This document shows, one piece after another, positions 43,708-45,837 of a stretch of 64,000 nucleotides of DNA. This DNA is from Minisyncoccota bacterium (GTDB lineage: Bacteria; Patescibacteriota; Minisyncoccia; Phycocordibacterales; XYD1-FULL-46-19). Numbering within the stretch: the stretch's first letter is position 1; each line of letters begins with the position of its first letter. The translations under genes were made by a program, and so were the position numbers. A model generated the notes under the pieces. The model was not told the origin of the DNA. It saw nothing but the letters and a program-made list of their open reading frames with translations, and made no database searches. Location: assembly GCA_041649495.1 (NCBI GenBank), contig JBAZMZ010000002.1:18793-82792 (forward strand). Direction: 5' to 3'.

Positions 43708-45837
43708 GTGAGCAATCTTGACCATAATGAGGCCAAAAAGCGCTTAATTAAGCTCCGGGAGGCGATTAATCACCACCGGTATCTTTATCATGTCGAAGAT
43801 CGGCAGGAGATTAGTGAGGAGGCGTTGGATTCGCTTAAGCACGAATTGGCGCAAATTGAGGAGGCCTATCCCGACCTAATTACCCCTGATTCGCCAACCC
43901 AGCGGGTGGCGGGTCAACCTTTGGCGAAGTTTGAAAAAGTTGTTCATCAAATGCGCCAATGGTCATTTAATGACGCTTTTTCGCCGGCGGATATGAGAGC
44001 TTTTGACGAGCGGGTGAGAAAAGGTTTAAATAGCTCACCTCGAAAATCAGACTTGTTCTATGTTTGTGAATTAAAAATTGATGGTTTACATATCGTCTTA
44101 ACCTACGAAAAAGGTCTCTTAAAAACGGCGGCGACGCGGGGTGACGGCAAGGTGGGCGAGAATGTGACAATGAATGTACGGACAATCAATAGTGTGCCCC
44201 TTAAACTCAATGAAGAAATTGATGTGGTGGTTGAGGGCGAAGTCTGGCTGGGCCGAGCGCAATTAGCGAAATTAAATAAAGAACGAAAAAGATTGGGTGA
44301 GCCCGAATTTGCCAATCCGCGCAATGCCGCCGCCGGCACGCTTCGTCAGCTGGATCCAAAGATTGTGGCCGAGCGCAAATTGGACACTTTTATTTATGAT
44401 TTATCGGCTATGAAAATGGACATAGGTTCCAAGGGTAGCCCTTGGACAGGGGCCTCAGTCCGAGGGCTACCCTTGGAACCCCAAACGCAAGCCGAGGAAC
44501 TCAAATTTTTAGCTAAACTGGGTTTTAAAACTAACCCAAATTTTCAAGTTTGCGCGACGATTGAAGAAGCGATCAAATTCTGGCAAAAATGGCAGACCAA
44601 GAAAGACTCGCAAGATTATTGGATTGATGGGGTGGTGGTGAAGGTTAACCAGCGGGCAGATCAAGAGCAATTGGGTTATACTGGCAAGGCACCGAGGTTT
44701 GCAATCGCTTTCAAATTCCCGGCCGAGCAAGTGACGACGGTGGTGGAGAGTATTGTCTTGCAAGTGGGTCGACAAGGCACGATTACGCCAGTGGCCAATC
44801 TCCGACCGGTCTTGCTGGCGGGATCAACCGTTTCGCGGGCGACCTTGCATAACGAAGATGAGATTAAACGGCTGGATGTGCGGGTGGGCGATACGGTCAT
44901 TTTGCAGAAAGCCGGCGATGTGATTCCCGATATCGTGAAAGTTTTAACCGAAATGCGCACGGGTCAAGAAAAAGTTTTTAAGTGGCCAACTAAACTTCAG
45001 GCTTGCTTGCCCGTCGGAGCTTCAGCGGAGGCGGGTGATGGCTCAATTGAGCGCATCCCTGGTCAAGTGGCTTGGCGTTGTGTCAATCAGAATTCTTACG
45101 CGCAGCTCAAACGGAAATTTTATCATTTTGTTTCTAATAACGCTTTTGATATCGAAAAATTGGGACCCAAAGTGATTGATCAATTAATGGATCATAATTT
45201 GCTCGCGACTTTTGCTGACATTTTCAAATTGAAGAAGGGCGACTTATTGATTTTGCCGAGATTTGCCGAGAAGTCGGTGGATAATTTGCTGTCGGCGATT
45301 AACGAGAAGCGCCAAGTTTCGCTGGCTCGTTTTATTGTTAGCTTATCTATTCCTAATGTGGGAGAAGAAACGGCTGAGGATCTGGCCGAGCATTTTGGGA
45401 CTTTGGATAGAATTCAATCAGCGAAACTTGAAGATTTGCAAAAAATCGAGGGGGTGGGGGAAATAGTGGCCCAGTCGGTTTTTGCTTGGTTTAAGCAAAA
45501 AGAAAATCAAAAGCTTATCTCAAATCTTTTGGGCCAAATCAAAGTTGCCAATCACGAGGCTAAGTCTCGTGGAAAAGGGCCGGGGAAACTAGCTGAAAAA
45601 ACTTTTGTTTTGACCGGCACTTTGTCGACTTTGTCGCGCGATGAGGCGAAAAATTTGATAAAACAAAATGGGGGCGAAGTGACCAGCACTGTTTCGCGTC
45701 AGACAAATTATGTTTTGGCTGGCGATTCTTCGATGGCGATCGTGGGGGCAGGTGGAGCTAGTTCAAAACTTAAAAAAGCCAATCAATTAGGAGTAAAAAT
45801 TATTAATGAGAACGAGTTTTATAAACTAATCAAATAA
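43708..45837 (+). CDS. ligA: NAD-dependent DNA ligase LigA
   Basis: Adenylation domain with KxDG (ELKIDGL), OB fold, Zn finger, HhH and BRCT regions. About 709 aa. GTG start. Confidence 0.95.
44425..44480. repeat. perfect 17-bp inverted repeat with 22-nt loop, in-frame inside ligA
   Basis: ggttccaagggtagccc (44425-44441) / gggctacccttggaacc (44464-44480). Encodes ..[19 protein letters not shown].. at a loop position of LigA. Confidence 0.8.

Follow-up and report, generated by a model that had tools for sequence, protein, structure and literature searches.

The question raised by this locus is how the essential gene ligA, encoding the NAD-dependent DNA ligase LigA, came to hold a 56-nt palindrome in its coding sequence with the reading frame preserved. 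The gene lies in a 64,000-nt stretch of DNA from a Minisyncoccota bacterium (GenBank assembly GCA_041649495.1, contig JBAZMZ010000002.1, positions 18,793 to 82,792), which was analysed whole and is referred to below as the window; the palindrome occupies positions 44425-44480 of its plus strand. The insert is real, in frame and lineage-specific. It sits in a loop modelled as disordered, at a site that is a hot spot for insertion, and inserts of this kind have palindromic cores and peptides in common even when they differ in site, gene or orientation, the frame remaining constant. The ligA palindrome is probably a tolerated and translated piece of palindromic DNA akin to the Rickettsia palindromic elements (RPEs) and the repetitive extragenic palindromes (REPs), built as a doublet of a small hairpin unit and housed in a disordered, permissive loop. 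A heterogeneous set of 18-60-nt inserts, of which it appears to be a member, is found in variable loops of LigA (at least five sites), ComF and CTP synthase in this Paceibacterota clade.

The palindrome and the LigA loop that holds it

The features of the gene and of the palindrome are as follows:

43708-45837, plus strand: ligA, an intact open reading frame (ORF) of 709 aa with Pfam adenylation, OB, HhH and BRCT domains
44410-44424, plus strand: five extra AT-rich codons (MKMDI) 5' of the palindrome, non-palindromic and likewise missing in empty-site orthologs
44425-44447, plus strand: left arm, 23 nt, GGTTCCAAGGGTAGCCCTTGGAC, beginning at a conserved Gly codon of the loop
44448-44457, plus strand: loop, 10 nt, AGGGGCCTCA
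44458-44480, plus strand: right arm, 23 nt, GTCCGAGGGCTACCCTTGGAACC, finishing in conserved Glu-Pro codons
44428-44446, plus strand: first copy of the mini-palindrome unit, TCCAAGGG-TAG-CCCTTGGA, encoding SKGSPW; extended by its flanking bases, it reads TTCCAAGGGTAGCCCTTGGACA
44459-44477, plus strand: second, inverted copy of the unit, TCCGAGGG-CTA-CCCTTGGA

An earlier note on this DNA, made from the sequence without database searches, had described a perfect 17-bp inverted repeat enclosing a 22-nt loop with a ggac/gtcc mini-palindrome of its own. The repeat is confirmed, the outer arms GGTTCCAAGGGTAGCCC (44425-44441) and GGGCTACCCTTGGAACC (44464-44480) being complementary without mismatch over 17 bp, but the presumed loop is not. 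The ggac/gtcc motif belongs to an inner extension of the stem (TTGGAC/GTCCGA, with a single T·G pair), so that the true structure is a hairpin of 23+23-nt arms around a loop of only 10 nt. Its predicted folds are highly stable both as RNA (-49.3 kcal/mol, z -8.4, equalled by none of 200 shuffles) and as DNA (-27.4 kcal/mol, z -8.1). The palindrome has a GC content of 64%, compared with 42% for the whole window and 46% for ligA, is the strongest inverted repeat of the window, and is the top outlier (GC-corrected z -8.6) among 35,092 sixty-nt windows drawn from 211 kb comprising the window and eleven related loci. Even with three mismatches tolerated, the 17-mer arm occurs at two places only in the window (0.03 expected).

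Each arm is in turn a 19-nt mini-palindrome, and the two copies are inverted relative to one another, with loops TAG and CTA, a spacing of 31 and 12 nt lying between them; the element is thus composed of two inverted copies of a small unit and a 12-nt spacer. In an independent assembly, made from a JGI sample and matching the window at 99.88% identity across 12.5 kb, the palindrome is unchanged base for base, which shows that it is not an artefact of assembly.

The palindrome is in frame and free of stop codons, and the protein matches at 100% the LigA of a Candidatus Paceibacterota metagenome-assembled genome, on record from NCBI, ENA, Logan and JGI. From the preserved frame alone we infer that the insert is translated. 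The in-frame insertion of about 19 residues proposed in the earlier note holds, for the loop measures 27 aa here and 7 aa in close orthologs (for example DISVGEIPKTQ), a gain of 20 aa of which approximately 16-19 are encoded by the palindrome. Alignment of orthologs further indicates that the insertion is lineage-specific, and its proposed position, a surface loop just ahead of the conserved TQ segment, is also upheld. In the E. faecalis LigA structure (1TAE), the corresponding position has ...YTVADFG on one side and PMKAKTQ... on the other, and the conserved TQxxEL helix follows. In an AlphaFold model of the present protein (mean predicted local distance difference test, pLDDT, 86.4), residues 239-252 score below 50 and form a coil between a confident strand (226-236) and a confident helix (261-271), so the insert residues are predicted to be a disordered surface loop of the adenylation domain. 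The model contains two further low-confidence stretches, 618-623 and 679-684, each of which coincides with another lineage-specific insertion.

Recurrent inserts in LigA, ComF and CTP synthase

Related DNA loci are denoted here by L-numbers and the homologous proteins compared by P-numbers. DNA was examined for twelve LigA orthologs, and the length of the loop, hereafter site 2, was surveyed in 114 alignable close LigA proteins of Paceibacterota. In 78 of the 114 the loop has fewer than 12 aa, with 7-9 aa the usual length, and in 36 it spans 12-31 aa. Proteins bearing an insert are interleaved with empty-site relatives on a neighbour-joining tree of LigA, on which at least 14 events of gain or loss are counted, seven of them in a 29-member subclade that includes the window. 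Strong hairpins of differing sequence occupy the same loop in six other lineages for which DNA is available, and the orthologous loops present the following picture:

L032: hairpin with perfect 19-bp arms, z -9.0
L028: hairpin, z -6.4
L025, L026 and L027: hairpins, z about -4
L086: small palindrome
L029 and L030: weaker hairpin signals
L031: non-significant fold
L033: empty site

The earlier note had reasoned that orthologs of the same length but lacking the palindrome, together with an absence of other copies, would point to an ordinary variable loop; in the orthologs, by contrast, the loop is empty or holds another palindrome.

The site-2 palindromes of the window, L025, L028 and L032 all begin at the conserved Gly codon (GG..), and their termini are GGTTCC/GGAACC, GGCGCC/GGCGCC, GGCACC/GGTGTC and GGCACC/GGTGCC, respectively. 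Three of the eight terminal pairs are altered on both sides between lineages, with pairing kept in every cell. A base-by-base reading of these changes as compensatory substitutions between the window and L025 is not claimed, as the MAFFT alignment shows an alternative in which L025 appears to have gained an additional inverted copy (CTTGGCGCC) of the sequence at its left end. Because of this ambiguity, the claim is limited to a concerted evolution of the arms, which appear from these alignments to change together between lineages. Compared with L026, L027 bears a nested duplication of 27 nt that holds a new palindrome.

Besides site 2, LigA of this clade has at least four more sites of sporadic insertion or deletion, represented in the window as follows:

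44032-44052, plus strand: remnant at site 1, peptide SSPRKSD, AGCTCACCTCGAAAATCAGAC, a piece of a right arm that matches L025 site 1 at 13 of 13 positions
45007-45036, plus strand: site 3 in the Zn-finger, a sporadic, GC-rich and weakly palindromic 10-aa insert
45550-45573, plus strand: mini-palindrome CACGAG-GCTAAGT-CTCGTG in the HhH-BRCT linker, peptide HEAKSRG
45730-45756, plus strand: 9-aa insert SMAIVGAGG in the BRCT domain, specific to the window, of low pLDDT and not significantly palindromic

The site-1 palindromes are intact in L025 and L028 (about -43 kcal/mol), and the sequence of the remnant in the window suggests decay by deletion. The ends of the site-3 insert (TTGCCCG.CG...AGGCGGG) are similar to those of the L086 insert at site 2, and the HhH-BRCT linker holds other mini-palindromes in L025 (CTCCCGAGGGTTCCCCTCGGGAG) and in L033. 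In the window and related loci together, GC-rich mini-palindromes are present at about five times the level of dinucleotide shuffles (17 vs about 3.2).

Similar inserts extend to other genes. The window bears a second in-frame palindrome of like format:

29734-29791, minus strand: palindrome in a ComF-family gene (ORF 29327-30244), 58 nt with 24-nt arms and a 10-nt loop, 60% GC, its peptide including ATGLKSNFEDPRSWTSSPS

The ortholog P0122, at 73% identity, lacks this insert, and at the same loop various inserts are found in other orthologs. Peptides of the 'KSNF..RS.TS' type are found in the same ComF loop of P0130 and in a different ComF loop of P0124.

Two recurring palindromic units can be defined, an A unit (TCCAAGG-N5-CCTTGGA) and a B core (CCTGCC-N5-6-GGCAGG, family B). 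The B core occurs four times in 178 kb, where 0.00 occurrences are expected: at ligA site 1 (L025, L028), at ligA site 2 (L029) and in the CTP synthase gene pyrG (L032). By BLAST, L029 site 2 and L025 site 1 agree at 23 of 24 positions (E 6e-6), and the L025 core is inverted relative to that of L029, 16 of 17 positions being identical after reverse-complementing. The pyrG insert of L032 (21611-21628) is a perfect 18-nt palindrome, CCTGCCTGCGCAGGCAGG, in frame and encoding ALPAQAG, and is identical over 18 of 18 positions to the ligA site-1 core of L028 (6446-6463; BLAST). Three frames are open in family B, and all its copies are read in the same one. The window unit with its flanks matches an A unit of L033 ligA (11740-11761), located in the HhH-BRCT linker, at 20 of 22 positions, and the two share a frame (SKGSPWT and SKGNPWT).

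Sharing is also evident among the encoded peptides. ALPVRQAG is common to LigA P0017 and ComF P0124; LPAQAG or MPAQAG appears in LigA P0009, PyrG (L032) and ComF P0169; and PPDLK is found in six proteins, at three LigA C-termini and in three ComF loops. LERPPKG is found in LigA P0014, and ComF P0133 has it twice, PRTFLERPPKGESSGT and PRTFLERWPKGESLGT being two copies in one gene (PRTFLER[P/W]PKGES[S/L]GT). A protein-only test of whether inserts could be encoded by palindromes, meant for orthologs without DNA, was dropped, as it was significant for perfect palindromes only and missed known hairpins such as those of L025 and L028.

Origin of the insert

The likely history of a tolerated mobile palindrome would begin with short hairpin-forming units copied to new sites as single-stranded hairpins, a candidate agent being a Y1/HUH enzyme resembling the REP-associated tyrosine transposases (RAYTs), as in the relative L028. 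In gene-dense genomes, the survivors would be confined to in-frame, stop-free insertions in tolerant loops. The copies might then enlarge by inverted duplication, their arms being kept complementary by hairpin-templated copying (template switching), and would ultimately decay by deletion. The insert itself would need no function for LigA and would be tolerated as selfish or neutral DNA, adding some 20 floppy residues; both the mechanism of transposition and this neutrality are what we infer.

The candidate enzyme is encoded at 907-1563 of L028, 5 kb upstream of ligA, and displays HYH and YIHLNPV motifs and a Pfam Y1_Tnp score of 29.6 bits (cutoff 23). A hairpin with a 16-bp stem adjoins the gene (1591-1625), and REP-like intergenic doublets of the form CCCGAC..GTCGGG, repeated within and between genomes, are found in L028 (261-298 and 11775-11827) and L026 (9212-9305). 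As a separate observation, the window has strong intergenic palindromes at 18049-18099 and 9127-9182 (z -5.8 and -6.9), with no T-tract noted, which are possibly terminators or other REP-like elements.

A wider proposal, advanced tentatively and with the balance slightly against it, is that Paceibacterota genomes, part of the Candidate Phyla Radiation (CPR), hold an undescribed class of mobile palindromes, GC-rich and ultra-small at 18-60 nt. Such elements would transpose as single-stranded hairpins, possibly by way of RAYT-like Y1 enzymes, and would survive almost exclusively as translated in-frame inserts in permissive loops of essential proteins (such as LigA, ComF and PyrG), the same loop being colonised repeatedly; they would constitute a CPR counterpart of RPEs and a significant source of lineage-specific protein insertions.

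A number of observations weigh against the reading of the insert as translated, mobile palindromic DNA. The earlier note had advised a search for other copies of the element, and this yielded a mixed answer: the 64 kb of the window hold the 56-nt element only once, and the 20/22 match in L033 ligA is the sole cross-site relative known for its unit. The search for further copies in the source genome spans these 64 kb. No copy with both arms was found in 185,579 GTDB species-representative genomes, among which the source genome is evidently not included, and viral contigs contain no match to the two-arm pattern or to the 22-nt unit. The metagenome collection lacks the window's own locus and is therefore silent on the source genome; its 51 two-arm matches are all unrelated terminator-like or other hairpins sharing an 11-nt stem. 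No direct repeat indicative of a target-site duplication flanks 44425-44480 (GACATA on one side, CCAAAC on the other), and no transposase homolog is found in the window, the RAYT-like candidate belonging to a relative and scoring only 40 bits against its best NCBIfam model ('REP-associated tyrosine transposase', NF047646), below the curated cutoff of 80. Sharing between genes is largely at the level of peptides without DNA, and translation is argued from the preserved frame, while frameshifted copies would not be retrieved as full-length homologs. Finally, 7 of about 19 in-ORF hairpin outliers fall in ligA, which makes up some 12% of the DNA, a possible hint of something specific to ligA, to be read with the ligA-centred sampling in mind.

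Certain other search results are neutral. In the representative genomes (596 Gb, two strands), 24 single-arm matches in unrelated taxa, compared with about 70 expected by estimate, are consistent with chance. Two-arm matches in the metagenomes exceed the chance estimate because any hairpin supplies its second arm automatically. A comparison of the four open-frame translations with 5.8 billion proteins gave no match at E<=10 and likewise missed the positive control P0001; short-peptide scoring is powerless in a set of this size, and the search is uninformative.

Among the alternatives, the most serious is an origin on the spot, with no mobility at all, through fold-back or inverted duplication by template switching in tolerant loops, followed by quasipalindrome correction, the likeness between inserts being convergence. 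Quasipalindrome template-switch mutagenesis (the Ripley model), a mechanism of mutation rather than an element, accommodates well the complementarity of the arms and their inverted extension, as in the apparent extra terminal copy in L025 and the nested duplication in L027. It would also suit the different palindrome sequence of each lineage at site 2 and the single copy of the window palindrome in 64 kb. Moreover, the palindromes start at a pre-existing Gly codon (GG), with a Pro codon (CC) at the other end in three cases (window, L025 and L032); an inverted repeat of 3 bp, GGA..TCC, is present even at the empty site; and all palindrome lengths are 2 mod 3. What this mechanism leaves unexplained is that identical 18-mers and 23/24 matches recur, in one case inverted, at unrelated sites and in unrelated genes, between genomes with proteins only about 70% identical. 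Nor does it explain the identical 8-aa insert peptides of LigA and ComF, the two copies in a single ComF, or the constant frame of family B, and the resemblance that it predicts between arms and adjacent coding sequence is not seen. Local template switching would thus account for growth and arm matching but not for identical cores at unrelated sites, and as the full explanation it is considered unlikely, if still deserving of attention.

The earlier note had also entertained a regulatory hairpin at the level of RNA. In its general form, this explanation would have the palindrome act in cis on ligA, as a target of RNase III, by pausing translation or by affecting the stability of the mRNA, or by tuning at the level of DNA, with pairing under selection. 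The extreme stability of the structure, the hairpins that at least six other lineages have at this codon position, the covarying terminal pairs and the over-representation of ligA among hairpin outliers would all be in keeping with such a role. Against it, many close relatives interleaved in the tree have an empty 7-aa loop, the sequence, length and hairpin loop are unconserved, and like inserts reside in other LigA loops, comF and pyrG; these features together disfavour a dedicated regulatory hairpin. Covariation within a palindrome is, besides, expected from template switching without selection. Signals of regulation were also sought at the site: there is no terminator-like site in 44200-44700 and no U-tract, the sequence 3' of the palindrome being CCAAACGCAAG; no promoter signal was found at the palindrome; and Rfam 15 in gathering mode assigns no family to it. 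The hits obtained at a permissive threshold, mir-540 and mir-331 at 20-33 bits vs a gathering score of 80, are microRNA-precursor noise. A regulatory element is consequently rated improbable.

A chimeric inverted junction from amplification or assembly, to which a metagenome-assembled source lends some initial plausibility, inverted chimeras being a known artefact of some amplification methods, can be set aside with near certainty in view of the identical palindrome in the independent JGI assembly, the preserved frame of a protein recorded by NCBI, ENA, Logan and JGI, and the analogous inserts in many independent assemblies.

Three further candidates were rejected. Translational bypassing of the T4 gene 60 or mitochondrial byps type is at odds with inserts that are all in frame and stop-free among the full-length homologs retrieved, a set that would leave out frameshifted copies; an intrinsic terminator or attenuator would call for a U-tract; and removal in the manner of an intron or intein has no supporting feature, and the insert is too small for it.

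Relation to known elements, gene neighbourhood and minor observations

Elements of this kind are already known, as in-frame palindromic repeats (RPEs and intragenic MITEs, miniature transposable elements with inverted repeats) and as the REP/REPIN architecture, but the ligA element departs from each family in a defining feature, be it size, copy number, tag or location. The in-frame colonisation of essential genes by palindromes is textbook knowledge for Rickettsia. With the RPEs, the ligA element shares a long palindromic stem-loop with inverted termini (here 23+23-nt arms, about -49 kcal/mol) and an in-frame position in a conserved housekeeping gene of a reduced, gene-dense genome, where it would add a surface peptide. 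Members of its wider family have a constant frame and a recognisable peptide at different sites and in different orientations, and are apparently neutral for the host protein. RPEs are 105-146 bp long (PMC2229807) and are inserted in frame, encoding a conserved peptide located at the protein surface (PMC2229807, PMC10969869); as relayed in PMC2229807 and PMC10969869, the RPEs of Ogata et al. 2000 have terminal inverted repeats of about 12 bp and tens of copies per genome, fall into some ten families and are confined to Rickettsia. The ligA element, in contrast, measures 56 nt with units of 18-22 nt, stems from Paceibacterota, is much richer in GC than its genome and is single-copy in the available 64 kb, and its link to RPEs is one of architecture. 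The resemblance to RPEs put forward in the earlier note is therefore apt for the class, that is, for GC-rich palindromes lying in frame at ligA, comF and pyrG sites in both orientations and one frame; the element is nevertheless not an RPE, given its 56 nt, its different phylum and its single copy in 64 kb.

The unit itself resembles the REPs, as an imperfect palindrome of the 20-40-nt class (19 nt, or 22 nt with conserved flanks), and two inverted units with a short 12-nt spacer forming a longer hairpin recall a REPIN; the RAYT-like Y1/HUH gene and REP-like intergenic doublets of L028 and L026 add to the likeness. REPs are, however, extragenic and of high copy number, whereas the ligA unit is intragenic, in frame and without a further copy in 64 kb, and the window has no RAYT homolog. 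REP units carry a GTAG/CGTC tetranucleotide at their 5' end (PMC3733652); the GTAG of the ligA unit lies instead in its loop (AAGG-GTAG-CCC). Intragenic bacterial MITEs include the 107-bp form of Correia/NEMIS, ERIC and YPAL, whose transcripts fold into long stem-loops (PMC2229807). Inverted termini and a long stem-loop are common to these and to the ligA element, although MITEs are 100-200 bp long, multicopy and flanked by a target-site duplication (often TA), and the ligA element is 2-3 times shorter with no such duplication evident.

Literature searches found no prior description of in-frame palindromic colonisation of genes in the CPR. Proteins and rRNAs of the CPR are known for unexplained lineage-specific insertions, and should the class of elements described here prove both real and mobile, some of this insertion load would be accounted for; the class would also serve to mark recent genome dynamics in bacteria that are ultra-small and uncultured, and offer a natural experiment on the disordered sequence that a loop of an essential enzyme can tolerate. 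For annotation, a warning follows that a very stable hairpin within a coding region of the CPR is not necessarily a regulatory RNA.

The genes surrounding ligA are type IV pilus genes upstream and an rluB-like gene, gatC and gatA downstream, in an order kept in relatives. Between the rluB-like gene and gatC, L086 harbours a bAvd accessory gene and a reverse transcriptase (5805-7184), a candidate diversity-generating retroelement that is missing from the syntenic region of the window. In the near-identical assembly L087, gatA is split into two ORFs of 81 and 413 aa (3666-5173, compared with 46987-48483 in the window), which may reflect a frameshift or an assembly indel; the 12.5-kb alignment of the window with the near-identical assembly contains a single gap.

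A GC-rich palindrome is also found near the N-terminus of the prepilin peptidase PilD, at 40722-40744 of the window, 3114-3136 of L028 and about 6985-7010 of L033. It reads CCGGCCGGAC..GTCCGGCCGG in the window and L028, approximately 85 nt into the gene, is diverged in L033, and may be a reflection of a conserved Zn-binding motif.

Nine metagenome loci (L048, L061, L064, L068, L070, L072, L074, L080 and L083) have in common a long hairpin unrelated to the ligA palindrome, cgggcgaccgc-AAGGGTAGCCCCTAC-[variable loop]-GTAGGGGCTACCCTT-gcggtcgcccg. Its stem of about 26 bp is conserved, with one or two substitutions in some copies, and its loop of 7-22 nt is hypervariable. Eight of the loci have a GC content of 36-39% and come mostly from one sample series; the ninth, L074, has 55% GC and comes from a different sample.

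Lastly, the window contains three copies of the LOOT RNA motif (Rfam RF03000), at 3260-3385, 13263-13397 and 55293-55415, all scoring above the gathering score; each lies between genes, upstream of an ORF on the plus strand.

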